A stretch of 64,000 bases of DNA from an uncultured Bacteroidales bacterium. GTDB lineage: Bacteria > Bacteroidota > Bacteroidia > Bacteroidales > CAIWKO01. Shown here piece by piece: positions 549 through 52,129 of this stretch (position 1 is the first letter of the stretch; each line of letters starts with the position of its first letter). The translations under genes and the position numbers were made by a program. The DNA is taken from positions 142,691 to 206,690 of the forward strand of contig CAIWKO010000036.1 in NCBI GenBank assembly GCA_903913285.1, written 5' to 3'. The notes beneath the pieces are model-generated. The model searched no databases. It had not been told where the DNA came from and saw only the letters and a program-made list of their open reading frames with translations.

Positions 549-3140
549 TCATCTGTAATTATGTATTGTTTTGAAGGCATTTAATCTTGCCGAAAAATCA
601 TTTTTCCAATCTTCATATTGTCGCAAGTCAACACGGATATCAGTTGGGTTTAATTGGTTGCTTTGCACCTCAATACCTCCATCATGTTCAGTTGTAGAGT
701 ATTTGCCAAATAAATCTAACAATAACCTAATGTCAGAGTGTTCTACAATTACATAACCTGATAAATAACCCGCTTTTAGATTGATATTTTTGGAAAACCT
801 TTTAATAGACTCATTGGCCAGTATATCCTCAACCGATTTTTCTAACAGTTTTCTGAATTGTTTTTTTAGTTTCTCTGTGATTTCTTCTATCCGTTGTGTC
901 TGATTTAATGAAAGAGAATCAATTAAGTCAAGGTCTCTGCGAATAGAGTTTATTCTTTCCTGAATATTCTTAGCCAAGTATGGTATTTCATCACTTACAA
1001 TACCTGCTACGCCTCTATTTTTTTCTAAACCAACGATAAAACATTCTTGACCCAATTTCTTTTTATGAATGTCAAGCAGAAGCCGAACAAAGTACAAGTC
1101 GTGGGTTAAAACAATAATCTGTCTGTCGTTTGATAATTCAACAATTTTTGTTGCAATTAATTCCCGATAATCCATATCTAATGAATTTACAGGGTCATCA
1201 AATACAATACTGTTTTTCCGATTATCAATTGTGCAGTCAGCCAAGAAATTTGAAAGTGCAACGACTTTTTTCTCTCCTTCACTCAAAACAGAATCTATTG
1301 AATGTGCAATACCATTTAAACCACATTTCTGAAAAGTACTGCCATCAGTTGTTCTTGTTTTTGAAATAAGAACTTTTGATGATAAATCTTGATTAAAAAA
1401 ACTAAGGTGATTTATAAACTCCTGATGCTGCAAAGCAACAGCTTGTTCTTCCATAAATTCACCGATTTTTCTCGAAACATTTATATTCAGTTTTGACTTG
1501 CAAGTGTTAATCCATGCTTTGTATTTATACTCATCAAAATACTGTAAAATTGTGGATTTGTGATTGAATAAAAATTCTTTAGCAAATAATTCATTGTACT
1601 CAATTACTAAGGTATTTCTATTATTTAGTAGTTGAGTATTTTGCTCTAGTTGAACAACAATATTTGGCAACAAATTTCCAATAAGAGTGGAGATTGAATT
1701 TACAGTTACATTTATTTCACCTCCATTCTGTAAATGATTTATTAAGACAGTTTTTGCGGAATTTACTGATTGATTAAATGCTTCATGTTGAATTTGAAAG
1801 TCAGTAATATATTGTTCCAACTCTGTGAAATTTTCAAATGGTGCAACAACTAAATTATTATAGTCAGAAGTTTTCTGTTCAATTTCTCTTTGAATTGCAC
1901 TCAATTGGGTTGAAACATCATTCAAAATGAATTTGCTAAAACCAAGCAATCTTTGCTTTGCTGCTTCATTCAAATCTTGTTGACAGAATACACACTTCTC
2001 CATTGATGCCGCAGACGGAAAATTTTGACCATCCGTCATTCCGTTACTTCCTGCGAAATTTTTGGCCGCATCCCATAGTGTTCTCCAAGGATTTGTTCCA
2101 AAACCAGCAATGGTATTCAATCCATTAAGTTCATTGGTAGCTATGTCATAAGCCTGTTTTACACTTTCATATTTGTTTCTTAGATTCCTTATTTCATGAA
2201 TTGAAGTATCATTGAATCGTTCCTCTATTCTTTTAAACTGTTGTATATAATTTTCAATTCTCCCTTTAAGAGAAGTCAGATTTTGAATATTCTGTTGCGG
2301 ATTTTGAGAATTGATTAAAGTAAATAATTCCTGTTTTCTTTCTGTATTTGTTTGACTAAATTGAATATAAGTGTCAATCTCTGTTCTTGTTTTTGATTCA
2401 ATAGCGGCATACCATTGACCAGTTGATGTAATATTTAAAATTGGGTCTAATGATGGTTTTTGAGTATTGTAGGTAATAATCTCTGAATTTAGCTTTTGAG
2501 AAATGTCATTTAAAACTGGAATTAATCTCTCTAAAACATCAATTCCTATTGGTTTGTATTGTGTAGGATTCTCATTATTGACATACACATTTCCACAATC
2601 ATTATCATAAACAAAAATTGAACTCATTGCAGAGTGTGTCGGTGAATTTTCCAGCCATTGAAAAGGAGTATTTATCCCATTGACTTCAATAATAAAATCA
2701 ACTTTCTGTTGAGTGGCAGAAGGAGAGAAAACGTTTTTCTTTAATTCCACATTTGAGTTTCGGCTCCAACATAATTTTTTTAAAATTCTTGAATAGCTTG
2801 ATTTACCAGAACCATTATTCCCATAAACAACGGTCAAACCGCTGTTTGGAAATTGTAAATGCCCTTGATTGTGCAAAGCACAAACATTTATCGGGTCTTG
2901 AATACTGATTAATTTTGGATAGACTGTGCCAGTAGCCACAGTTGTAGGAATATGTGTATTGTCAATTGGAATTGCGTTTAATGTAACTGTTGTGTCGCCA
3001 TTTTCTTTTTTTAACAGCGAAACAAGCTCTGCAATGTCAGTATGAGTAATAGTAGAACTTGATATTATTCTCCGCAATGCATCTTTTAAAAACGATGGCT
3101 TATTGTTAGCCCAAATTAATATATCGTTATAAATAGCCAT
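549..3140 (-). CDS. AAA_13-type ABC/SMC-like ATPase with coiled-coil CxxC insert; RloC/PrrC-like restriction-linked protein (putative anticodon-nuclease-type effector)
   Basis: Walker A GNNGSGKSS (aa107-115, nt 2796-2822). A ~500-aa helix-prone insert carries CVFC (aa383-386, nt 1983-1994). Signature-like LSEGEKK (aa619-625), Walker B IVFDDP (aa645-650), VLTHD. Starts 4 nt after the hsdS stop on the same strand. Confidence 0.6.
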   Translation of the reverse strand: MAIYNDILIWANNKPSFLKDALRRIISSSTITHTDIAELVSLLKKENGDTTVTLNAIPIDNTHIPTTVATGTVYPKLISIQDPINVCALHNQGHLQFPNSGLTVVYGNNGSGKSSYSRILKKLCWSRNSNVELKKNVFSPSATQQKVDFIIEVNGINTPFQWLENSPTHSAMSSIFVYDNDCGNVYVNNENPTQYKPIGIDVLERLIPVLNDISQKLNSEIITYNTQKPSLDPILNITSTGQWYAAIESKTRTEIDTYIQFSQTNTERKQELFTLINSQNPQQNIQNLTSLKGRIENYIQQFKRIEERFNDTSIHEIRNLRNKYESVKQAYDIATNELNGLNTIAGFGTNPWRTLWDAAKNFAGSNGMTDGQNFPSAASMEKCVFCQQDLNEAAKQRLLGFSKFILNDVSTQLSAIQREIEQKTSDYNNLVVAPFENFTELEQYITDFQIQHEAFNQSVNSAKTVLINHLQNGGEINVTVNSISTLIGNLLPNIVVQLEQNTQLLNNRNTLVIEYNELFAKEFLFNHKSTILQYFDEYKYKAWINTCKSKLNINVSRKIGEFMEEQAVALQHQEFINHLSFFNQDLSSKVLISKTRTTDGSTFQKCGLNGIAHSIDSVLSEGEKKVVALSNFLADCTIDNRKNSIVFDDPVNSLDMDYRELIATKIVELSNDRQIIVLTHDLYFVRLLLDIHKKKLGQECFIVGLEKNRGVAGIVSDEIPYLAKNIQERINSIRRDLDLIDSLSLNQTQRIEEITEKLKKQFRKLLEKSVEDILANESIKRFSKNINLKAGYLSGYVIVEHSDIRLLLDLFGKYSTTEHDGGIEVQSNQLNPTDIRVDLRQYEDWKNDFSARLNAFKTIHNYR

Positions 3141-3144
3141 ACTT

Positions 3145-4377
3145 CTAATTTTCTATTGTCGCAAGTTTTGAAAGTAGTAAATCTTTCAATGTACTTAAAG
3201 CAATTTGCTGTTTCTTTTTCATTTTTAAACAGTTGTTCAAATTCATACTACTGATCATGTACTTTTGTAAAATGTATTTTGATGGAAATACAATTTTTTG
3301 TTGGCCAAAAGTTTTAATAGTGATTGCACTCTGAGTAGATCCAATAGTTATTTCATTGATTAAGTTGGTAAATTGTTCAGTTTGCATAAAATCATACAAT
3401 AAATAATTTGAATTTTCATACTTAAAATTCTTAAACCAAATTACATTCCCGTCTTTGAAGTAGAACTCTTCCTCATCAACCATATAGGTAGAACCTATTG
3501 TGCCAACGGCGGTCATTAGAATGTCTCCTTTGCTTGGTTTACCATAGTTCTTGATAAGTTCATCATATCGTTTATAAGAAATATAGATAAGGTCTGAAAT
3601 AACTGCACCTGCTTTTTTTTGCGTAATTTCTTTCCCTCTATAGAAAGGTATTCCGTATTTTTGATATTCACTCTCAAAAATCCTTTTGCTTGAAGTTATT
3701 TCACAAATTGAAGAAATTTCTTTCAATTCCCATCCCTTCGGCACGTCCCCCAATTCACTTTCCACCAACTCCCCACCATTCGTTTTATAAGGTTTTCCTG
3801 CTGCATCCGGAAATTCAAAATCAACAAACCACTGCTTATAAATGGCCTGTGCCGTTTCTTCCAGTTTTTGTATAAGTTGGTTATTCAGATTAATGCGGTC
3901 AACAATGGCGTTGTATTCTTTTACGATTTCTTTTTGTTTTTCAGGGCTTGGAATAGGTAGTTCAGTATTACACATTTCTTCCCATGAGAACATTTCACGA
4001 ACACTACCATGCGACATAAATCTTGCATAACGGTCAAACTCTGGTCTGCGAAACCACATCATCAAGTATTCAGGCAGCAATTCTTTTTCATCTTTTATTT
4101 CGAACACATCATAGGCTTGTGAAACCATAGCTGTTTTGTCTTCCTGATATAACGCAATAGTAATCTTCTCGCCATTACGTGATGTAACAGAGCAATAAGC
4201 AAACTGATTTTTATTGAGAATTCTATAGGTCGACATATCCGTTCCTATAGTGTTTGAAATGGATGGAATAAATTTTTTCTGTATACTCAACCCGATCAAA
4301 TTATCAATTTGAAGGTTTCGGTTCCGTTTGTCAACCAAATTGATATAATCTTCCAGCCGCTTATAATTTGATCTCAT
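3145..4377 (-). CDS. hsdS: Type I restriction-modification specificity subunit HsdS
   Basis: 410 aa with two variable halves separated by a conserved helical spacer (LPIPSPEKQKEIVKEYNAIVDRINLNNQLIQKLEETAQAIYKQWFVDFEFP), with a similar C-terminal helix. Start overlaps the hsdM stop by 17 nt. Confidence 0.85.
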   Translation of the reverse strand: MRSNYKRLEDYINLVDKRNRNLQIDNLIGLSIQKKFIPSISNTIGTDMSTYRILNKNQFAYCSVTSRNGEKITIALYQEDKTAMVSQAYDVFEIKDEKELLPEYLMMWFRRPEFDRYARFMSHGSVREMFSWEEMCNTELPIPSPEKQKEIVKEYNAIVDRINLNNQLIQKLEETAQAIYKQWFVDFEFPDAAGKPYKTNGGELVESELGDVPKGWELKEISSICEITSSKRIFESEYQKYGIPFYRGKEITQKKAGAVISDLIYISYKRYDELIKNYGKPSKGDILMTAVGTIGSTYMVDEEEFYFKDGNVIWFKNFKYENSNYLLYDFMQTEQFTNLINEITIGSTQSAITIKTFGQQKIVFPSKYILQKYMISSMNLNNCLKMKKKQQIALSTLKDLLLSKLATIEN

Positions 4378-5935
4378 ACCCTAGTTCTATAAAAACTTTC
4401 AGCAAATCATTTTTCGATTGTTCTTCGGCTTTCAGCAGTTCGGCAAACTCGCTTTGCAATACCTGCATCTTTTCATCAAAATCTATACTCTCATCACGGT
4501 TGATAAACTCTATGTATTTGCTGGGCACCAACGAAAAATCCTTTTTTAGCACTTCGTCAAAAGAAGCACTGTGACAAAATTCAGGAATATTAAAGGCATT
4601 GGACACTTCATGTTGTACCCCCAAAGTTTGCCAATTATGAAAGGTTTCCGTAACCTTCCTAATGTCTTCTTCCGAAAACTGCACGTATTTCTTTTCAAAG
4701 GGAATACCCATTTGCCTCAGGTCCATAAACAGAATTTCACGTTCGCGATCCCTGTAATTCTTTACCGTTCCATCGTGTTCCACGATTCTGGCTTTTTTGT
4801 TTTTATTCAAAATCCAGATGGTAACACTGATATCGGTGGTATAAAACAAATTGCGGGGCATCACCATAATAGCTTCTACCAGATTGTTCTCAATAATTTT
4901 CCTTCTGATCTTATATTCCTCACCTCCACCGCTCAGAGCACCATTGGCCAATACAAAACCGGCCATCCCATCATCTGATAATTTGCTCACCATGTTCAAT
5001 ATCCATGCATAGTTGGCATTGCCTGTAGGCGGCACATCATAACCACGCCAGCGTGGGTCGTCCACCAATTCATTATCTGCCCTCCATTGTTTTTGGTTAA
5101 AAGGCGGATTGGCCATAATATAATCGGCTTTCAGGTCCTTGTGCTGGTCGTCGGCAAAGGTGTTGGCAGCCTTTTCGCCCAGGTTGGCCGATATTCCGCG
5201 TATGGCCAGGTTCATCTTGGCCAGTTTGTAAGTGGTGTTGGTATATTCCTGTCCGTAAATAGAAACTTCCTGTTTGTTGCCGTGGTGGCTCTCTATAAAC
5301 TTTATGGATTGCACAAACATACCCCCCGAACCGCAGCAGGGGTCATAAATAATGCCTTTATAAGGCTCTATCATTTCGGCTATCAGGTTAACTATGCTTT
5401 TTGGGGTATAGAATTCTCCTTTACCCTTGCCTTCGGCCAAAGCAAATTTGCTCAGGAAATATTCGTACACCTTGCCCACTATATCCTGCTGTTTGTCTTT
5501 CAGGGTATCAATATTGCTGATCTCATCAATCAGTGAGGCCAGTTTCGAGGCATCCAGTCCCAGACGGGAGAAATAGTTATCAGGCAGGGCGCCTTTCAGC
5601 GATTTGTTGTTCTTTTCAATAGTATGCAATGCCGTGTCAATGATCAAAGCCAGGTCGCTTTGTTTGGCTTTTTTCACAATATAGCTCCAGCGCGAAATTT
5701 CTTCCAGGTAAAACACATTGCTCATATTATAGAAATCAGCCATTTCAATGTATTTCTCTTTGCCATCGACAATCAACTTTGCCCTGTGTTCTTCAAATTT
5801 ATCGCTGGCAAACTTCAAAAAAATCAAACCCAACACCACATGTTTATACTCGGCAGGTTCTACACTACCCCTCAGTTTATTCGCCGCTTCCCAAAGGTTC
5901 ACTTCAATCGCTTTCGCTTTAACTTCTTTCGCCAT
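4361..5935 (-). CDS. hsdM: Type I restriction-modification DNA methyltransferase subunit HsdM (N6-adenine)
   Basis: AdoMet motif DPCCGSGGMF, catalytic NPPF (IMANPPFNQKQW) and the N-terminal HsdM_N-like segment LWEAANKLRGSVEPAEYKHVVLGLIFLKF. Confidence 0.9.
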   Translation of the reverse strand: MAKEVKAKAIEVNLWEAANKLRGSVEPAEYKHVVLGLIFLKFASDKFEEHRAKLIVDGKEKYIEMADFYNMSNVFYLEEISRWSYIVKKAKQSDLALIIDTALHTIEKNNKSLKGALPDNYFSRLGLDASKLASLIDEISNIDTLKDKQQDIVGKVYEYFLSKFALAEGKGKGEFYTPKSIVNLIAEMIEPYKGIIYDPCCGSGGMFVQSIKFIESHHGNKQEVSIYGQEYTNTTYKLAKMNLAIRGISANLGEKAANTFADDQHKDLKADYIMANPPFNQKQWRADNELVDDPRWRGYDVPPTGNANYAWILNMVSKLSDDGMAGFVLANGALSGGGEEYKIRRKIIENNLVEAIMVMPRNLFYTTDISVTIWILNKNKKARIVEHDGTVKNYRDREREILFMDLRQMGIPFEKKYVQFSEEDIRKVTETFHNWQTLGVQHEVSNAFNIPEFCHSASFDEVLKKDFSLVPSKYIEFINRDESIDFDEKMQVLQSEFAELLKAEEQSKNDLLKVFIELGYEIKL

Positions 5936-6182
5936 TTTGTTTTAATAATATTCGATTTATGAATTGCCTGTTCAGATATTAGTTCTTTCCTGATCAGATA
6001 TTAATCATTTTCACACTTCAAATGTATCTATTTTTTCAAAACAATACATTTGAGTTTGTTTTTATTTTTTAAGAACAGTTTAAATTTAAATTTTGATAAG
6101 AAGGTCTTGAGTGTTTTTCAAAAACAACCTGTTCGGCTGTTCATCCTGACTGAAAGGAGGTTCCGCGGGAGATGAGGGCTGT

Positions 6183-6371
6183 TTGGCATCCCGTTCCGGC
6201 AGTTTCGCGGTGTGCTCCCTTTACTTCGCGGTGTGCTCCCTTTGTTTCGCGCTGCACTCCCTTTGTTTCGCGGTATGCTCCTTTTGTTTCGCGGTATGCT
6301 CCCTTTGTTTCGCGCTGCACTCCCTTTGTTTCGCGGTATGCTCCTTTTGTTTCGCGGTGCGTTCAGTTTGC
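6183..6371. repeat. 21-bp tandem array A1 (8-9 units, consensus TTCGCGGTGTGCTCCCTTTGT)
   Basis: TTCGCG unit starts at 6204, 6225, 6246, 6267, 6288, 6309, 6330 and 6351, all exactly 21 apart. The array ends in a 29-nt junction, gttcagtttgctttgtgaggggtgaacga (6361-6389). Confidence 0.95.
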
Positions 6372-6444
6372 TTTGTGAGGGGTGAACGATATTAGCAGAA
6401 TGACACACTTTTCTGAACACTCCCTGAACACTCCCTATAACAAC

Positions 6445-6906
6445 ACTTGAACCGACCAATACAACACCCGAATTGTTCAATACATAACTTGAACCGACCA
6501 TAACGATACCCGAATTGTATATAACGACACTTGAACCGACCATTACGATACTTGAATTGTTCAATACATAACTTGAACCGACCAATACAACACCCGAATT
6601 GTTCAATACATAACTTGAACCGACCATTACGATACCCGAATTGTTTATAACAACACTTGAACCGACCATTACGATACTTGAATTGTTCAATACATAACTT
6701 GAACCGACCATTACGATACCCGAATTGTTTATAACAACACTTGAACCGACCATTACGATACTTGAATTGTTCAATACATAACTTGAACCGACCATTACGA
6801 TACTTGAATTGTTCAATACATAACTTGAACCGACCATTACGATACCCGAATTGTTTATAACAACACCTGAACCGACCATAACGATACTTGAATTGTTCTT
6901 CGCGTA
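6445..6906. repeat. 21-bp-period tandem array B1 (22 half-units; 42-bp super-unit ACTTGAACCGACCATTACGAT+ACCCGAATTGTTTATAACAAC)
   Basis: The AC(T/C)(T/C)GAA unit start recurs from 6445 to 6886. That is 441 nt, or 21x21, so there are no indels across 462 bp. Confidence 0.95.
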
Positions 6907-7066
6907 CAAGTATTAACTCAATCCCAAACTGCAATTATTCTTTCTGCTTCATAAAATATACGTTTCGTTCATGTCATTGTTCATTTAATCGAAGTCAGAA
7001 TTCTTTTCGATTTTGTCAATGGTGTTTCCATACTTGTCAATGTCATTTCAGTGATGGTCAAGTTGT

Positions 7067-7444
7067 TTCGCGGCGTGGTCAAGTTGTTTCGCAATGCGTT
7101 CCCATAACATTTCGGTGTGCTCCCTTTGTTTCGCGCTGCACTCCCTTTGTTTCGCGCTGCACTCCCTTTGTTTCGCGGTGTGCTCCCTTTGTTTCGCGGT
7201 GCGCTCCTTTTGTTTCGCGGTATGCTCCCTTTGCTTCGCGGTGCGCTCCTTTTGTTTCGCGGTGTGCTCCCTTTGTTTTGCGGTGCGCTCCCTTTACTTC
7301 GCGGTGCGTTCCCTTTGTTTCGCGACGCGCTCCTTTTGTTTCGCGGTGTGCTCCCTTTGCTTCGCGGTGTGCTCTTTTTGCTTCGCGGTGCGCTCCTTTT
7401 GTTTCGCGGTGCGCTCCCTTTACTTCGCGGTACGTTCAGTTTGC
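7067..7444. repeat. 21-bp tandem array A2 (18 units, same family as A1)
   Basis: Unit starts run from 7067 to 7424 (357 = 17x21). One unit has a +2/-2 compensating offset near 7109-7130. The array is followed by a 29/29 identical copy of the A1 junction at 7434-7462. Confidence 0.95.
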
Positions 7445-7476
7445 TTTGTGAGGGGTGAACGAGAGACTGTTCTGAC

Positions 7477-7539
7477 ACTTGAATTGTTTATAACGGCACT
7501 TGAACCGACCATAACGATACCCGAATTGTTCTTTACGAC
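7477..7539. repeat. Short B-type array B2 (3 half-units)
   Basis: acttgaattgtttataacggc / acttgaaccgaccataacgat / acccgaattgttctttacgac, lying directly after the A2 junction in the same order as A1-junction-B1. Confidence 0.85.
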
Positions 7540-7617
7540 ATGAAACTGTTTTTTAAAGATAAAGCTTTTAAAGTTGATGATTCATCGTTTTACTACATTG
7601 TCTATCTATATTCTCTC

Positions 7618-7885
7618 TACCCTGAAGGCAGCAATACCATTCATGCCTTTATCAAAAACAACTTGGTTTATCCACTTCAAGCAATAGAAAAGGAAAGCAG
7701 GTCAATGTATTCGTAACCTTTGAAATTAAAACTGATGGTAGTCTGTCGCATCCGAAAATATTGCGATGTATAGGAAATGGCGGCGATGTGGTAGCCCTTC
7801 GGGTATTGGAATTGATGTCAAAATGGTCGCCGGCGCAATCGCATGGGAAACTGGCTTGATCAACCTATACGTTGGTCGTTAGGTT
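7618..7885 (+). pseudogene. TonB C-terminal-domain gene fragment (frameshift plus in-frame stop, no N-terminal part)
   Basis: Frame a reads YPEGSNTIHAFIKNNLVYPLQAIE. After a shift in the A-run near 7686-7692, frame b reads KGKQVNVFVTFEIKTDGSLSHPKILRCIGNGGDVVALRVLELMSKWSPAQSHGKLA*STYTLVVRF. This is the classic TonB_C pattern (YP..A...G.QG.V.V.F.V..DG......V........D.EA.RV...MP.W.P....GK.V....T.P..F). Confidence 0.6.
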
Positions 7886-7959
7886 TTTGTATTATTGGGT
7901 AATTATTAATTAATGTTCTCTAATGCACTAAAAAATAGAGAATCAAATAATGTAGAAGT

Positions 7960-9222
7960 TTATTTAAAAAAATCAACATACTTTCTTGCAACTAATTCCG
8001 CATCTAACTTTAAATATTTCATAAATGCACGTTCGGTTTTGTGTCCACTGAATTTCATTATGGCTTGGGCTGGCATACCCGCAAGATATTTTAACGTGCA
8101 GAAAGTTCTTCTACAGGTATGCGATGAGACTAATTCGTATTTTTTATAAATATGTTCGGTAGTTTTTCCAGCAATTTTTTTTAATATTAACACGTCTTCA
8201 TCAATTTTCGCCTTTTCACAAATTTTTCTGATTGTTTTATTAAATTCTGTCAATTCGCAACATCGATCTTCATGCTTGCTAGCAAATAGAATACCCAATG
8301 TTTTTTTTAATCTTGAACTAATAGGAATGACAACTTGATTATTTAACACCCTACCCTCAGTCTTTTTGGGCCTGAAATATAAATTACCGTTTTTTATATT
8401 TTCTTTTTTAATCCTAGTAAAATCACTGAATCTCAATCCTGTTTCGCAACCCACAATAAATAAATATCTGATAAAAGAATCCTGTAAGTCTTCTAAAGAA
8501 ATACTTTCAATTTTTTCGAGATCAGATTCTGTAAGATATATATTATCGACTTCTTCAGTTTTAGTTACCATATGTTTTAAACTAAAAGCTGTACTCATAT
8601 CCTTGTCAAAATACCAATTTAAAAATACTTTTAAGTTTTTAAATTGTTTCCCCACTGTATTAGCACTGAGACCTTTTTCGCCTTTTGCATTTATTGCCTC
8701 ATAAGTGAGGTAGTGATCCATTTGATCAATAAATCCTCCATTTTTTTCCTTCAACATTAAAAATGTGATAGGTTTTCCTAAAATATTTTCAATCTTTTTA
8801 AGATGTTTTCTGAGGGAATTATCATAATCTCTAATATCTCCTAACTGGTTTTTTTTATAAACAATAAATTCCTCAAAATACTCCCAAAAGGAATTTGGCT
8901 TAATTATTTTTATTGGATTATCTTTTGCTGCAATAAAATTCTTTTTAAGAGTTTCTTCATCCGGTATTATTCCAGCATTCCAAAATTCTTTATATACCTC
9001 CGTCATTATCATTCTATAGGTCTCTATTCTATCATTGATTTCAGAATGTTCAGGAAATTCAATTAGTTCTCTAACTCGCTGAATTTTGCCATTCCAATAT
9101 TTAGGATAAACACTAATACCCGTTGGTATTTTTATCTTTTGATTCTCATAAATAAAAATCAGATTAATCATTGTCCTTTTCTTTACACTTTTATTTCTGA
9201 GATAAAAATTTACCTTTGTCAT
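7960..9222 (-). CDS. Tyrosine-type site-specific recombinase/integrase (Bacteroidota phage-integrase family)
   Basis: 420 aa with an N-terminal arm-type domain (MTKVNFYLRNKS...). The C-terminal catalytic region has GLRFSDF, HTCRRTFCT and GHKTERAFMKYL (R...HxxR...Y). Confidence 0.85.
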   Translation of the reverse strand: MTKVNFYLRNKSVKKRTMINLIFIYENQKIKIPTGISVYPKYWNGKIQRVRELIEFPEHSEINDRIETYRMIMTEVYKEFWNAGIIPDEETLKKNFIAAKDNPIKIIKPNSFWEYFEEFIVYKKNQLGDIRDYDNSLRKHLKKIENILGKPITFLMLKEKNGGFIDQMDHYLTYEAINAKGEKGLSANTVGKQFKNLKVFLNWYFDKDMSTAFSLKHMVTKTEEVDNIYLTESDLEKIESISLEDLQDSFIRYLFIVGCETGLRFSDFTRIKKENIKNGNLYFRPKKTEGRVLNNQVVIPISSRLKKTLGILFASKHEDRCCELTEFNKTIRKICEKAKIDEDVLILKKIAGKTTEHIYKKYELVSSHTCRRTFCTLKYLAGMPAQAIMKFSGHKTERAFMKYLKLDAELVARKYVDFFK

Positions 9223-9249
9223 AAACTGTTTTTTTTACAAAGATAATAA

Positions 9250-9271
9250 AAAGGGGGGACAAAGGGGGGAC
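9250..9271. repeat. Tandem 11-mer AAAGGGGGGAC x2 just upstream of the integrase start
   Basis: aaaggggggac|aaaggggggac at 9250-9271, 28 nt upstream (on the - strand) of the integrase ATG at 9222. Confidence 0.7.
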
Positions 9272-9425
9272 AGATTATCTTTATTTTTATTAACTTTTTC
9301 GAATTAGTCTTTTTTTTAATACTGTTGTATAAGTCTAATATTCAGTGTTTAAAATTCATATTTATAAAATTAAGAAAAGATAGAAAAACCCCTATTTACG
9401 GTCCCGTCCGGACCGCTTCAAATGC

Positions 9426-9461
9426 AAAAAACCTTGAATTTTAGTATTCAAGGTTTTTTTT
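9426..9461. terminator. Bidirectional rho-independent terminator
   Basis: A-run, then ACCTTGAAT (9431-9439), loop tttagt, ATTCAAGGT (9446-9454), then T-run. It lies directly downstream of the ABC gene ending at 9476 (-). Confidence 0.8.
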
Positions 9462-9475
9462 ATGGTCATATAATC

Positions 9476-11239
9476 TCAGCTTTCGTTCTTTTCGTGCAGC
9501 AGCATATTAACAGCATCGCTGAGCGAGCCTGCATGAATAACTTTGCCGGTATTCACGAAGAAAATATCATCCGCATTTTCAATAGTGTTTAAACGATGTG
9601 CTATGATGACCAGCGTAGTTGATTCGGGGAGTTTTTTCAATATTTCATCAAGCAGTTGTTCGGTCATGGTATCGATGTTTGCAGTAGCTTCATCCAATAT
9701 CAATAATTCCGGTTTGCGAAGCACAGCACGCATAAATGCTATCAGTTGTTTTTGTCCTAAACTGATACCATCGCCGGTGGTTTGTATTTTTGTATCCAAT
9801 CCCTGAGCGAAATGTTCGAGCAAACTTTCAAGTCCTGCGTTTTTAATTTCTTCAGTTAATTGTTCGTTGTTCAACTTATAGTATTCAGGATTTCCATACA
9901 AAATATTTTCACGCACTGTGCCCGAAAACAAAAAAGGTTCCTGAAGTATAAATCCTATTATACGGCTGCGCTCTTCGGGTGTATATGAGCGAATGTCGTT
10001 TCCATCTATTAATATGGTTCCTTTTGTGGTATCGTAAAGTCGCGCGATAAGCGAAGCAGTAGTTGTTTTTCCACCACCTGTGGGTCCGACAAAAGCATAG
10101 GTCTTTCCCCGTTCAAGGTCGAAGCTTACTTTGTGCAATACTTCTTTTCCGTTGGGATATTTGAACGTTACGTTTTGAAATGAAAGAAAAGATGTGCTTG
10201 TTATGGTTTTAGTACTTTCTACAACATGCAAATTTGTTTCGAGCGATAGTATTTGCGAAATGCGGTCCCAACCTGCCATAGCAACCTGAAAGTTTGCCCA
10301 CAATGCCGCCAGTTGCCGCAGAGGATTGTAGAAATTTGAAACGTAAGCAATAAAACTTATAAGCAAACCGAGGGTGAAATTGCCTTGAAGAATAAGATAA
10401 ATACCCAGCGAGAGCACTATCAATTGACCAATATTAGCAGCCAGCGTGTAGACCGGCATAAATATGTTATTGGCAATACCTGCCTGAACCGATTTTGTGT
10501 AGTTTTGTTTATTAGCCGCTTCGAAACGTTTGCGGAAATAATCGCGGCGATCGAAGGCAATTATTACCTTGAAGTTTGCAAGGCTTTCCTGTATCTCTGC
10601 ACTTAGATAACCCGTGCTTTTCAAACTGGCTGCGTTGCGGTGTTTGACCCAGGGCGAGACAATTTTAGTGAATACATACACGATCAGTGCAGGCGATAAT
10701 GCGGCCAACCCTAACTGAAAGTTTATACTCAACAGAAATATGCCTGCACCCAGCATGGTGAAAATACTTCCTAAAAACTGCATCAGCGATTGTGAGAAGA
10801 ACTGATTTACTTTATCGGTGTCGTTGTTGATGCGCGAAATCAGATCCCCTACTTTATTCTGGTTGAAAAAATCGACAGGCAATTCTTGAAGTTTGTTGAA
10901 TAACGCATTGCGTAAGCTGAACAACATCCTCTGTCCAACTCCACCCATCAATCGCATCTGAATGAAATTCACAAAAAAAGCAACAATATAAAGTGTGAGC
11001 AAGATTCCTGCAAATACCAACACGCCATGATATTGTTTGGTTTGAATATAGGTATCAATAGTATGCCCCACCAAATAAGTTCCCAGCAAACTTAATGTTG
11101 CATTGACAAGAATGGCACCAAGAGCCAATATAAGATTACGGCGTTCTTCACCTATAAGTCCCAACAACTTTCGCATTAAAGCAAAGGTAGATACCTTTTG
11201 CTCCTGCTTATCCGATGGTTTATTCAGATTATAATTCAT
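9476..11239 (-). CDS. ABC transporter permease/ATP-binding protein (MsbA-like exporter half-transporter)
   Basis: Six-TM N-terminal half, Walker A GPTGGGKTT, signature LSLGQKQ, Walker B LLILDEAT. Confidence 0.9.
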   Translation of the reverse strand: MNYNLNKPSDKQEQKVSTFALMRKLLGLIGEERRNLILALGAILVNATLSLLGTYLVGHTIDTYIQTKQYHGVLVFAGILLTLYIVAFFVNFIQMRLMGGVGQRMLFSLRNALFNKLQELPVDFFNQNKVGDLISRINNDTDKVNQFFSQSLMQFLGSIFTMLGAGIFLLSINFQLGLAALSPALIVYVFTKIVSPWVKHRNAASLKSTGYLSAEIQESLANFKVIIAFDRRDYFRKRFEAANKQNYTKSVQAGIANNIFMPVYTLAANIGQLIVLSLGIYLILQGNFTLGLLISFIAYVSNFYNPLRQLAALWANFQVAMAGWDRISQILSLETNLHVVESTKTITSTSFLSFQNVTFKYPNGKEVLHKVSFDLERGKTYAFVGPTGGGKTTTASLIARLYDTTKGTILIDGNDIRSYTPEERSRIIGFILQEPFLFSGTVRENILYGNPEYYKLNNEQLTEEIKNAGLESLLEHFAQGLDTKIQTTGDGISLGQKQLIAFMRAVLRKPELLILDEATANIDTMTEQLLDEILKKLPESTTLVIIAHRLNTIENADDIFFVNTGKVIHAGSLSDAVNMLLHEKNES

Positions 11240-19844: not shown

Positions 19845-20189
19845 CTTTGAATAGGCTTCTATTAATTTACTCACTTCTTCCATATCCTCAAATAAATTGT
19901 TATTATTACCGTAATCTAAATCTTTTGCTAGAATTAAATAATACCTGCATTCTTCTAGCGAACCCTGTGCAATATTCAAAAATCGTATTTTATCAGGTTT
20001 TCCTCTTTTTTTAAATCCTTCAGCAATATTTGCAGGAATTGATATAATGGCTCTTCTTAATTGTGACGTTAATCCAAACATTTCTTTTCGTGGAAATGCT
20101 TCACTAAAATTATAAATTGATATAACTAACTGATGAGACTTTTGCCAGACAATCAAATCTTGAAAACTTTTTGCAGGTATATTTGCCAT
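19821..20189 (-). CDS. Four-helix-bundle protein (23S rRNA intervening-sequence protein / S23p / Avd-like family)
   Basis: 122 aa. FQDLIVWQKSHQLVISIY...FPRKEMFGLTSQLRRAIISIPANIAEGFKKR...RFLNIAQGSLEECRYYLILAKDL is the family pattern as I recall it (W.K...L...IY....FP..E.....Q.RRA..S...NIAEG......D...F..IA.GS..E....L.L). Confidence 0.8.
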   Translation of the reverse strand: MANIPAKSFQDLIVWQKSHQLVISIYNFSEAFPRKEMFGLTSQLRRAIISIPANIAEGFKKRGKPDKIRFLNIAQGSLEECRYYLILAKDLDYGNNNNLFEDMEEVSKLIEAYSKAILTSYS

Positions 20190-32425: not shown

Positions 32426-32537
32426 AGCTTTATGGTTTTTAGTGAAAATAATAAATATTTTAAATTATTGATTTATATTACTTTAAAAATGTTATTTGCA
32501 TTTGAATTTTAAATAACGGGTATGAACTGCATTTTTG

Positions 32538-32747
32538 CGAAGGTCAATCTTCTATCAGCGAAAGTCGATCTTCGGATACCGAAGGTCAATCTTCTATCAG
32601 CGAAAGTCGATCTTCGGACATCGAAGGTCAATCTTCTATACGCGGGGGTCGATCTTCGGATGCCGAAGGTCAATCTTCTATACGCGGGGGTCGATCTTCG
32701 GATGCCGAAGGTCAATCTTCTATACGCGGGGGTCGATCTTCGGACAC
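32538..32747. repeat. 21-bp-period tandem array C (10 half-units = 5 x 42 bp; CGAAGGTCAATCTTCTATCAG + CGAAAGTCGATCTTCGGATAC)
   Basis: Unit starts run from 32538 to 32727 (189 = 9x21), with no indels. The shared core is GTC(A/G)ATCTTC. The second half-unit has an imperfect dyad around TCGA. Confidence 0.95.
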
Positions 32748-32899
32748 CCAAAATGCATCCTCTGCCCATCATCATCTATTTAAATTCTTTCAAAGAACAA
32801 TTTCTGTTTCGCAACTTGTAAATACAAAAGTATAATGAAACATTGCCACGATGCTTGGCAAAGATGGGGTGAAAATTACGGTTTTTTGTGGCAATTCTT

Positions 32900-50564: not shown

Positions 50565-50670
50565 AGGTTTAGCTTTTTAGGCGTTTAGTCTTTTAGGTAA
50601 CAGGTAACAGGTAATAAGTAATAGGTACTTCTTACTTCTTACTTCTTACTTCTTACTTCTTACTTCTTAT
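50546..50670. repeat. Three abutting micro-tandem arrays: six 8-mers (TAGGGGTT type), five 7-mers (AGGTAAC type), six 7-mers (TTCTTAC)
   Basis: Read directly: 50546-50593, 50595-50628 and 50629-50670. The second and third arrays are mutually complementary around GTAC (50625-50628). Confidence 0.95.
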
Positions 50671-51376: not shown

Positions 51377-51388
51377 GGGGGAGTTCAA

Positions 51389-51448
51389 AGTTACGAGTTA
51401 CAAATTATGAGTTGCAATTGGTGATTAGTGATTTGTGATTTGATTTGG
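51389..51448. repeat. Heptamer array of 8 units (AGTTACG AGTTACA AATTATG AGTTGCA ATTGGTG ATTAGTG ATTTGTG ATTTGAT)
   Basis: Read directly. The last four units (51417-51444) form the left arm of a 28-bp inverted repeat. Confidence 0.9.
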
Positions 51449-51518: not shown

Positions 51519-51679
51519 CAAACAGATCAAAATAAAAAAGTGTGTATGCTATACATCCCTGCTTCTTCCACCTTTTACATCACAACATTATTATGGTAAT
51601 AGTTTTATCTAATTCAACTGAAAACCCGAAATTCTCAGGTGTATTTTTAGGTTATTGTTATGGGCTTTTATATTTTCCA

Positions 51680-52057
51680 AGCCGGCTTAGAATAATTTGT
51701 AGCCTACTTAGAATAATTTGTAGCCGGCTTAGAATGTTTTGTAGCCGGCTTAGAATATTTTGTAACCGGCTTAGAATATTTTGTAGCCGGCTTAGAATGT
51801 TTTGTAGCCGGCTTAGAATAATTTGTAGCCGGCTTAGAATAATTTGTAGCCGGCTTAGAATAATTTGTAGCCTACTTAGAATATTTTGTAGCCGGCTTAG
51901 AATGTTTTGTAGCCGGCTTAGAATATTTTGTAGCCGGCTTAGAATATTTTGTAGCCGGCTTAGAATGTTTTGTAGCCGGCTTAGAATAATTTGTAGCCTA
52001 CTTAGAATAATTTGTAGCCGGCTTAGAATATTTTGTAGCCTACTTCAAATGTTTTTC
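51680..52057. repeat. 21-bp tandem array D (18 units, AGCCGGCTTAGAATAATTTGT)
   Basis: Unit starts run from 51680 to 52037 (357 = 17x21), with no indels. Each unit carries the 8-bp palindrome AGCCGGCT or its variant AGCCTACT. Variation is confined to positions 5-6 (GG/TA) and 15-16 (AA/GT/AT). Confidence 0.95.
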
Positions 52058-52080
52058 ACTACGCTTACAGTGGTTTTTCC

Positions 52081-52129
52081 ATCAAATCGCAAATAGCTAA
52101 TCACTAATCACTAAAAGTAAATCGCAATA
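52081..52129. repeat. Heptamer array (ATCAAAT CGCAAAT AGCTAAT CACTAAT CACTAAA AGTAAAT CGCAATA)
   Basis: Read directly. 52081-52108 is the right arm of the 28-bp inverted repeat with 51417-51444. Confidence 0.9.

Follow-up and report, generated by a model that had tools for sequence, protein, structure and literature searches.

Direct repeats in bacterial DNA include the iterons and centromeres of plasmids, such as the 22-bp iterons of R6K and the 12 x 43 bp repeats of F sopC, and the mycobacterial interspersed repetitive units (MIRUs) and variable-number tandem repeats (VNTRs), which are intergenic, have units of tens of base pairs, vary between strains by whole units and have short open reading frames (ORFs) running through them. 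The ORFs of MIRUs, which lie within operons, overlap the flanking genes. Here we describe a repeat complex in a 64,000-nt stretch of DNA from an uncultured Bacteroidales bacterium (contig CAIWKO010000036.1, positions 142,691 to 206,690), which we refer to as the window. The complex is a block of 1.35 kb made up of two modules in the same sense, each consisting of a 21-bp A array, an identical 29-nt end and a 42-bp B array (A1 and B1 in module 1, A2 and B2 in module 2).

The nearest described analogues are the BrickBuilt (23-nt repeat) and MITE-PgRS/464 (41-nt repeat) elements of Porphyromonas gingivalis (Klein et al. 2015, PMC4596501), a member of the same phylum. Like the block described here, these elements are always intergenic and laid out as leader, array and tail, with imperfect, spacer-free repeats of ~21-23 nt (~41-42 nt in a second type) in 1-23 copies. 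The units have conserved and variable positions, and sequences before and after the array are common to the copies; copy number varies between strains, spurious ORFs have been annotated, and promoter-like elements lie at the edges. The likeness is one of description, as PMC4596501 presents its repeat as a logo only. A second point of reference is the excess of heptanucleotide repeats in prokaryotes, for which polymerase slippage was proposed, as summarised from Mrazek 2007 in PMC4679880; the same paper (MacGregor 2015) describes heptamer-rich intergenic regions in some Bacteroidetes.

The complex is best read, with moderate confidence, as a non-coding composite minisatellite that changes by unit-wise slippage or recombination in a genome favouring repeat lengths that are multiples of 7 bp. 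Its copy number is probably variable. Two parts of this explanation we infer, namely the slippage or recombination mechanism and the limit on function, which would be at most modulating, for example by spacing or bending the DNA by the hsdM promoter. The history would have begun with the tandem duplication of an ancestral module, made up of an A array, its degenerate end and a B array. Each of the four arrays would then have gained and lost units on its own, by replication slippage or by unequal homologous recombination among multi-unit blocks that are nearly identical (63 bp in A1, 84/126 bp in B1). Since such events add or remove whole units, the 21-bp register would be kept without selection on phase. 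The array edges, homogenised least, would have decayed into what appear as a “junction”, a leader and a “unique” spacer, and the unit lengths of 21 and 42 bp, three and six times 7, would reflect a genome-wide bias of intergenic repeats to multiples of 7 bp. Of the intergenic repeats that show this habit, the block is the largest.

Array anatomy, copy number and period

Tandem Repeats Finder (TRF) reports A1 at 6202-6359 as 7.5 copies of 21 bp (alternatively 2.5 copies of 63 bp at 93%), B1 at 6445-6898 as 10.8 copies of 42 bp (alternatively 3.6 copies of 126 bp at 93%), and A2 at 7063-7431 as 5.9 copies of 63 bp, with 15.2 copies of 21 bp from 7113. Indels are at 0% in all three. Across the arrays the match level is 82-93%, with 3-22 copies (counting 21-bp and 42-bp units), and every array has its own internal order of unit variants. 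No other A or B unit is present in the 64 kb at up to 3 mismatches, and shuffled sequence gives 0 matches.

An earlier reading of the window, made from the letters without database searches (the sequence-only reading), had proposed the two-module layout, which TRF and printing of the units in register bear out. The 29-nt junction that it noticed in both modules is indeed duplicated exactly, at 6361 and 7434, and the segmental duplication that it suggested accords with the array start, the identical A end and the B 3' end (...CCATAACGATACYYGAATTGTTCTTYRCG) that the two modules have in common. The junction as a separate element is rejected, being the degenerate terminal unit of the A array, of which only ~22 nt are kept in related arrays. 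The B arrays had been described as 21-bp units in 42-bp super-units; the super-unit stands and the 21-bp unit does not, as the two 21-bp halves are only ~52% alike (lag-21 identity 0.59). Of the 160 bp of unique sequence said to separate the modules, ~90 bp are unique, while 7000-7104 consists of decayed 21-bp units of a related type (A'-like). The compensated +2/-2 unit reported in A2 is real: it is TAACATTTCGG, at 7105-7125, and recurs at the same array position in two related arrays from metagenomes (contigs L008 and L022, described below). A CRISPR array is ruled out, since the units abut without spacers. The idea of the junction as a hairpin (CGTTCA...TGAACG) was dropped, since its 3' arm is not kept in the related contigs L016 or L008.

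Other assemblies of the locus, all public, short-read and from other samples, were recovered via the integrase and HsdM proteins. The ~480 bp of repeats made up of A2, junction 2 and B2 have 0 mismatches in L006 and L025, and in L024 there is 1 mismatch in 1,978 nt, so the arrays are real. A1 and B1 differ between assemblies. A1 has 8 units in the window and in L024, and 5 in L025 and L026. B1 has 11 units in the window, 9 in L025 and a different unit order in L026; in L024 the B1 tail, which follows an N gap, has one additional unit. The differences thus amount to 63 bp in A1 and, in B1, to either 84 or 42 bp; the rest of the loci (~2 kb of flank) shows 0-1 mismatches. In A1 the longest stretch repeated exactly within the array is 62 nt, at offset 63; in B1 it is 124 nt, at offset 84. 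These offsets equal the two deletion sizes. A2, in which exact repeats reach only 37 nt, does not vary. Differences of whole units fit homology-driven slippage or unequal recombination, and short-read collapse would give the same pattern. As 100-N gaps lie within A1 and B1 in two scaffolds and some contigs end in B1, the counts of 8 and 11 units are not secure. The sequence-only reading's view of a locus prone to expansion and contraction is in line with these whole-unit differences, in short-read data where collapse could produce them as well.

The common factor of the array periods is 7, not 10.5 (helix) or 3 (codon). With the score threshold lowered, 20/28 intergenic tandem-repeat loci of the window have periods of 7, 14, 21 or 42 bp, versus 1/11 within genes. 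Autocorrelation of the intergenic DNA, with the three big arrays masked, is 0.312 at lag 7, 0.322 at lag 14 and 0.309 at lag 21 against a background of ~0.288 (standard error ~0.005, estimated), and coding DNA has the 3-nt period alone. Short repeats of period 7 or 14, of diverse sequences, lie in spacers at 20189, 27612, 28581, 31633, 33712, 34981 and 36423, with further ones at 50626, 51381-51442, 52097, 52223 and 54012.

Two longer arrays of the window are unrelated to A and B in sequence. The C array (51680-52040) has 17.2 copies of an unrelated 21-bp unit (AGCCGGCTTAGAATATTTTGT) with 92% matches and 0% indels, in a 1-kb intergenic interval that separates a rhomboid-like gene from an S41 peptidase gene; its length is the same in L033, and two other contigs end within it. 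An exact look-up of the rhomboid-like neighbour gave no record, probably owing to another choice of start codon. A spurious 184-aa “CSRLRIF” ORF (51542-52096) crosses the C array. The D array (32537-32748), also intergenic, has 5 copies of 42 bp made of two 21-bp halves, with 0% indels at the main period, and is the only array with nested 7/21/42-bp periods (lag-7 identity 0.41 versus a background of 0.21). Two further claims of the sequence-only reading fall here. It had explained the period as two helical turns, where the intergenic periods and the autocorrelation peaks follow multiples of 7, and it had seen selection acting on the 21-bp phase and not on the sequence, where unit-wise slippage or recombination keeps the phase unaided and many A positions are highly conserved.

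Related A arrays and competing explanations

One scan of Joint Genome Institute (JGI) metagenomes yielded true arrays in four contigs. A-type arrays are thereby known from four intergenic settings (the window, L008, L016 and L017/L022), and two of the metagenomes hold two A-type loci each. The closest relative of module 1 is in L016, with a leader alike at 28/32 nt, 15 A units with a consensus identical to that of the window, and then the first ~22 nt of the junction; its B-type array (42 bp x 23.5) has a consensus that differs from the window B at 11/42 positions. The A array of L008 lies between a gene with a type IX secretion system (T9SS) tail, followed by terminators, and a convergent gene. 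L017 and L022 represent one locus in two metagenomes, where A and A' arrays are found ~200 bp downstream of a tRNA-Ala gene. Outside the arrays, these four contigs share nothing with the window.

All A arrays start with ..TTCCGGCA.. (CATGCCGGCG in L022), those with a visible end finish with GCTTTKTGAGSGGG, and the odd unit TTAACATTTCGG comes third or fourth in A2, L008 and L022. These shared starts, ends and variant unit indicate that the arrays are copies of one ancestral element, not independent expansions. Among 72 A units from five arrays in the four settings, conservation reaches 93-100% at positions 3-8 (TTCGCG), 15-16 (TC) and 20-21 (TT); the variable positions are 2, 9, 11, 12, 14, 17 and 18. 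A scan of the genome collection for the A-unit pattern gave five single chance hits in unrelated phyla, so the source species with an A array is absent from that collection. Viral contigs yielded no hit to A unit, junction or B core, and four single hits to the A' core were dismissed on inspection as chance; plasmid and phage collections were likewise without a match. Related A arrays are closely preceded by long perfect palindromes or terminator hairpins (470-515 in L022, 100-190 in L008). In L008 they include a 23-nt palindrome, GTGCGAAGTTGCAAACTTCGCAC, which has a degenerate second copy just downstream, so that the pair flanks the array.

Several of these observations weigh against a minisatellite shaped by neutral turnover. 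The start, core and end are shared in four unrelated settings, and the A consensus is constant while B differs at 11/42 positions. From the sequences compared, such constancy of A looks like sequence constraint or mobility, unexplained by plain neutral turnover. There is no net indel in ~100 A-type units that have diverged by 15-26%, the one +2/-2 pair being compensated, which hints at selection on unit length. Lag-7 and lag-14 identity within A, B and C does not exceed background; without internal 7-bp periodicity, these arrays are tied to the heptamer bias by a statistical and not a demonstrated link. Short-read collapse could account for the differences between assemblies. Finally, the + strand frame VSRCAPF, and it alone, is free of stops in all five A arrays, and consists mostly of preferred codons. 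The constancy of the A sequence and the lack of net indels keep alive the explanations by binding arrays and by mobility.

The boldest explanation takes the A arrays as a dispersed and conserved element of a Bacteroidota lineage, whose fixed start, 12-15-nt core recurring at exactly 21 bp and fixed end would jointly serve as a landing pad for a DNA- or RNA-binding protein. Copy number would then be a heritable dial on neighbouring genes, here through the hsdM promoter of the restriction-modification island, and the 7-bp bias would be the mark not of chance but of a molecular ruler, such as a polymerase or a binding protein with a 7-nt footprint. We regard this as possible, though unlikely.

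More specifically, the A arrays, and perhaps the B arrays, may be arrays of binding sites similar to iterons or centromeres, in which a 12-15-nt core, recurring every 21 bp, would present the same side of the helix and support a cooperative or curved complex. Copy number could then tune neighbouring promoters (hsdM) or a process related to the element. This finds support in the position-specific conservation beside a variable 6-7-nt block in all four settings, in the strict 21-bp spacing and its single compensated pair, and in the conservation of array start and end at the nucleotide level. In addition, a wedge model predicts marked curvature of A2, with an end-to-end/contour ratio of 0.62, under all 100 shuffles, that rises to 0.97 with the units out of phase. 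However, any 21-bp repeat is predicted to be curved, so that the modelled curvature would be a physical consequence of the period and no evidence of selection. The adjoining integrase has an arm-type DNA-binding domain, but the arrays are not where its arm sites would be expected, as the attachment (att) site is inferred to lie on the far side of int, and arm sites were judged unlikely from position alone. No rep, par or candidate binding-protein gene is present in the island or beside the related arrays, the searches of plasmid and phage collections and viral contigs gave no match, and the unrelated 21-, 42-, 14- and 7-bp arrays of the genome mean that the period needs no helical-phase explanation. 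On balance we hold binding-site arrays to be unlikely.

Alternatively, the module may be, or may have been, a non-autonomous mobile element with an internal minisatellite, in the manner of BrickBuilt and MITE-PgRS. Mobility would explain the spread to several intergenic sites, and the four settings are indeed alike only in their arrays. The order of leader, spacer-free array of ~21-23 nt and tail is that of BrickBuilt (PMC4596501), and the A arrays have positional homology at their 5' ends, including the place of the odd unit. An inverted repeat of 18/21 (6061-6081 / 7543-7563) brackets the complex; it is AT-rich, 1/60 Markov shuffles equals its score, and the other loci do not have it. Shared leader and tail measure only ~12-22 nt versus up to 285-318 nt in BrickBuilt, no BrickBuilt-type terminal repeat was found near the locus and no IS5-like terminal inverted repeat (GAGACCTTTGCA type) within 12 kb of it, neither a target-site duplication nor a partner transposase was identified, and no long stem-loops are predicted. 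Mobility is therefore, in our judgement, a distinctly unlikely origin for the module.

The repeat block is apparently non-coding, with residual doubt for the + strand frame of the A arrays. The base A is nearly absent from the + strand of the A arrays, with an AT skew down to -0.74 (A2). As stop codons need T and A, stops are nearly precluded on either strand of the A arrays, and overlapping ORFs result. The statement of the sequence-only reading that all six frames are largely open is correct for the A arrays but not for B1, which has two open frames only, both on the minus strand, and 6-16 stops in its + strand frames. That these ORFs are artefacts, as was also proposed, is supported by the A-poor composition and by the lack of family or homologue matches. 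Pfam and NCBIfam gave no family match for any repeat ORF. An exhaustive HMMER search of 1.84 billion representative proteins gave 651 hits, of which the 11 top-ranked were inspected and are all unrelated heptad or low-complexity proteins, and a local control showed that phmmer detects such repeat ORFs readily given a relative. Two word-indexed protein searches, with a 263-aa ORF and with six concatenated repeat frames, returned nothing relevant from an index that is probably poor with repeats, and an exact look-up of the 263-aa ORF found no record.

The frame link between B and A arrays varies among copies. The minus-strand B frame (VVINNSG/VVMVGSG) joins PRNKGSA in module 1 and ERTAKQK in module 2 and L016, and the ERTAKQK frame contains stops. 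Two A'-type array ends in L022 are conserved over ~62 nt with a 1-nt and a 2-nt indel between them, so that homologous ends are read in different frames. Variable positions of the B minus strand are ordered third>first>second (13:10:4, by hand from profiles), a weak trend with an estimated p of ~0.1. The idea that the arrays are a repeat-rich linker of the downstream TonB_C gene was dropped, as the frames do not connect and the B1 + strand frames are closed.

Against this background it is improbable that the A arrays encode small heptad-repeat proteins from the + strand (M..VPA-(VSRCAPF)n-VSRCVQFAL), expressed from a TACATTTG promoter, with 21 bp representing 7 codons. Besides being the sole frame without a stop in the five arrays, VSRCAPF has a TGA stop at one place in the conserved array end despite a differing neighbour codon (TTG TGA versus TTT TGA), and possible starts lie near the array start (ATG at 6172, ATG in L022, TTG/GTG in L008). 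Its Arg codon alternates synonymously between CGG, CGC and CGA, 6/7 codons are preferred, and the codon adaptation index (CAI) is 0.78-0.81 versus a gene mean of 0.765. A perfect AGGAGG (6155-6160) lies 11 nt upstream of the ATG at 6172, which starts a 68-aa A1 ORF. Shine-Dalgarno sites are rarely used in Bacteroidota, which counts against a coding role. The scarcity of A accounts for the open frames, the variable positions are evenly spread over the three codon positions, and the ratio of non-synonymous to synonymous polymorphism (pN/pS, 0.37-0.95) is no better than in other frames. Furthermore, the nearest start codon for A2 is a TTG within B1, the L008 array is without a promoter box and lies between convergent genes, after terminators, and the homologous ends in L022 fall in different frames. 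No homologue was seen among the inspected hits from the 1.84 billion proteins, no family matched, and codons cannot explain the 7-bp and 14-bp arrays of the same genome.

At the RNA level, Rfam gave no match at E up to 1 over 5000-10000, and fold z-scores relative to shuffles are +1.16 and +0.10 on the + strand and +2.38 and -1.63 on the minus strand; by this model the arrays are not predicted to form structured RNA. An RNA from the arrays that is no more structured than shuffles would be single-stranded, and the arrays might then give rise to an unstructured repeat RNA that sponges a single-strand RNA-binding protein, similar to CsrB. The promoter-like box directed into A1, the array RNA structure at or below that of shuffles on both strands and the extreme strand composition would suit such a role, as would the cold-shock and S1-type heptamer-repeat-binding proteins discussed in PMC4679880. 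Yet no Rfam family is found, no promoter box was seen at L008 or L022, no terminator follows A1 or B1, and no gene for an RNA-binding protein is linked to the arrays, which leaves a sponge very improbable. That the arrays or their copy numbers are assembly artefacts is scarcely credible: the N gaps inside A1 and B1, the contig ends inside B1 and the agreement of the 63/84-bp deletions with the longest-repeat offsets are as collapse predicts, but A2, junction 2 and B2 are the same or nearly so in three assemblies from different samples, related arrays occur in unrelated JGI metagenomes, and the unit variants give a unique internal order per array.

Genomic setting

The flanks of the complex named by the sequence-only reading are all present, namely hsdM and hsdS, a frameshifted TonB_C remnant and an integrase (Table 1). 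They belong to a small co-directional islet of integrase, TonB_C remnant, arrays, hsdM, hsdS, AAA_13 ATPase, RhuM and an hsdR of 377 aa, in which no replication, partition or mobilisation genes were found. The island is in decay, as seen in the TonB_C pseudogene and the shortened hsdR. The reading frames indicate that the TonB_C gene is a pseudogene; its ATG overlaps (ATGA) the stop of an artefact ORF (7094-7543) that runs through A2 and B2. As hsdR is truncated, the restriction function is probably lost. In its truncated form hsdR overlaps a 246-aa T9SS-tail ORF. The AAA_13 ATPase and RhuM are situated between hsdS and hsdR in the type I cluster (549-5935 in the window, 12617-15439 in L032).

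Boxes of the form TAnnTTTG are found 20-45 nt upstream of many window genes; like a T9SS sorting domain that scores above its curated cut-off, they mark the organism as a member of the Bacteroidota. The box that the sequence-only reading had placed before the arrays is present, and has a minus-strand mirror copy facing hsdM; apart from this pair, no promoter-like box lies between hsdM and the integrase gene. The two TACATTTG boxes form a 9-bp inverted repeat (CAAATGTAT N15 ATACATTTG) in the interval between hsdM and the arrays, and look like divergent promoters around one symmetric site.

Table 1. Features of the repeat complex and its flanks in the window (positions counted from the first letter of the 64,000-nt stretch).
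Feature	Positions	Strand	Basis and remarks
hsdM, first gene of the type I restriction-modification cluster (hsdM-hsdS-AAA_13-RhuM-truncated hsdR)	4361..5935	-	
-7 promoter box of Bacteroidota type (TACATTTG), oriented towards hsdM, whose ATG lies 84 nt downstream	6019..6026	-	consensus match
Mirror TACATTTG box directed into the repeat complex; the only + strand one between hsdM and the integrase gene	6045..6052	+	consensus match only
Array start (leader), degenerate unit ending CCCGTTCCGGCA	6181..6201	+	alignment; same start in L016, L008 and L022
A1 array, 8 x 21 bp (GTTTCGCGGTGYGCTCCCTTT), higher-order period 63 bp	6202..6369	+	TRF and in-register printing; 5 units in two other assemblies
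Junction 1, degenerate last A unit (GTTCAGTTTGCTTTGTGAGGGGTGAACGA)	6361..6389	+	exact copy at 7434; ~22 nt kept in L016, partly in L008
Spacer with degenerate B-like units; 11-bp x 2.2 repeat (CTGAACACTCC) at 6413-6436	6390..6444	+	TRF and in-register printing
B1 array, 11 x 42 bp, higher-order period 84/126 bp	6445..6906	+	copy number and unit order vary among assemblies
Inter-module spacer, unique	6907..6999	+	periodicity not visible
5' edge of A2, degenerate, with A'-like units (..GGTCAAG TTGTTTCGCG..) as well as the old variant unit TAACATTTCGG (7105-7125)	7000..7127	+	in-register printing
A2 core, ~15 regular 21-bp units (~18 counting the degenerate edge from 7063)	7128..7440	+	
Junction 2, 29/29 identical to junction 1	7434..7462	+	
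B2, three 21-bp half-units; 3' end matches the B1 3' end	7477..7539	+	
Decayed TonB_C-domain gene; frameshift near 7700, premature stop at 7854-7856	7540..7856	+	PF03544, weak, E = 0.005
Hairpin with T run, the sole terminator-like one in the region	7857..7888	+	
Tyrosine integrase, Bacteroidota-type arm-binding N-terminal domain	7960..9222	-	PF00589, PF13102, PF17293

Significance and comparison with known repeat systems

Arrays of this kind have practical consequences, in that they break short-read assemblies, leaving N gaps and contig ends in A1, B1 and the C array, and lead gene callers to emit spurious repeat proteins, such as a 187-aa ORF annotated in several public assemblies. In this uncultured lineage the arrays would be usable for strain typing. 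The minisatellite lengths of 7, 14, 21, 42, 63 and 126 bp extend the known excess of heptanucleotides to higher-order units, and make a tractable case in which to ask where the 7-nt step comes from. Should the A family owe its conservation at unrelated sites to a binding protein or to mobility, it would join BrickBuilt as a second type of repeat element in Bacteroidota.

Compared with BrickBuilt, in which leader and tail measure up to 285-318 nt (PMC4596501), the sequences shared around the arrays described here are short, at ~12-20 nt before the array and ~22 nt after it. The BrickBuilt repeat has 0-6% indels, whereas the period here is exactly 21 bp, with 0% indels. BrickBuilt has long stem-loops; none are predicted here (z -1.63 to +2.38 over both strands). 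Two different arrays per module and the tandem duplication of the module also set this locus apart from BrickBuilt.

The cyanobacterial short tandemly repeated repetitive (STRR) sequences and the TAACTGA repeats of Beggiatoaceae, Cyanobacteria and a few Bacteroidetes (PMC4679880) are likewise intergenic and comprise many sequences. They are matched by the 7/14-bp arrays of this genome and by the periods of A, B, C and D, all multiples of 7. In contrast to these repeats, A, B and C are minisatellites of 21-42 bp and not runs of heptamers, the tandem unit not being 7 nt.

With plasmid iterons and centromeres the arrays share direct repeats of ~21/42 bp in helical register, a conserved core with variable positions and an arrangement in several clusters. 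They differ in that no rep or par gene is nearby, there is no plasmid or phage match, and the same genome has unrelated arrays of the same period. The 18-22 copies also exceed typical iteron sets. The mycobacterial MIRUs belong to another phylum and have other units, and here two unit families are combined in a duplicated composite module. As a long leader and tail, IS5-type ends, stem-loops and a cognate gene or replicon are lacking, the locus is filed as a variant of the bacterial intergenic minisatellite; it does not by itself constitute a new kind of system.

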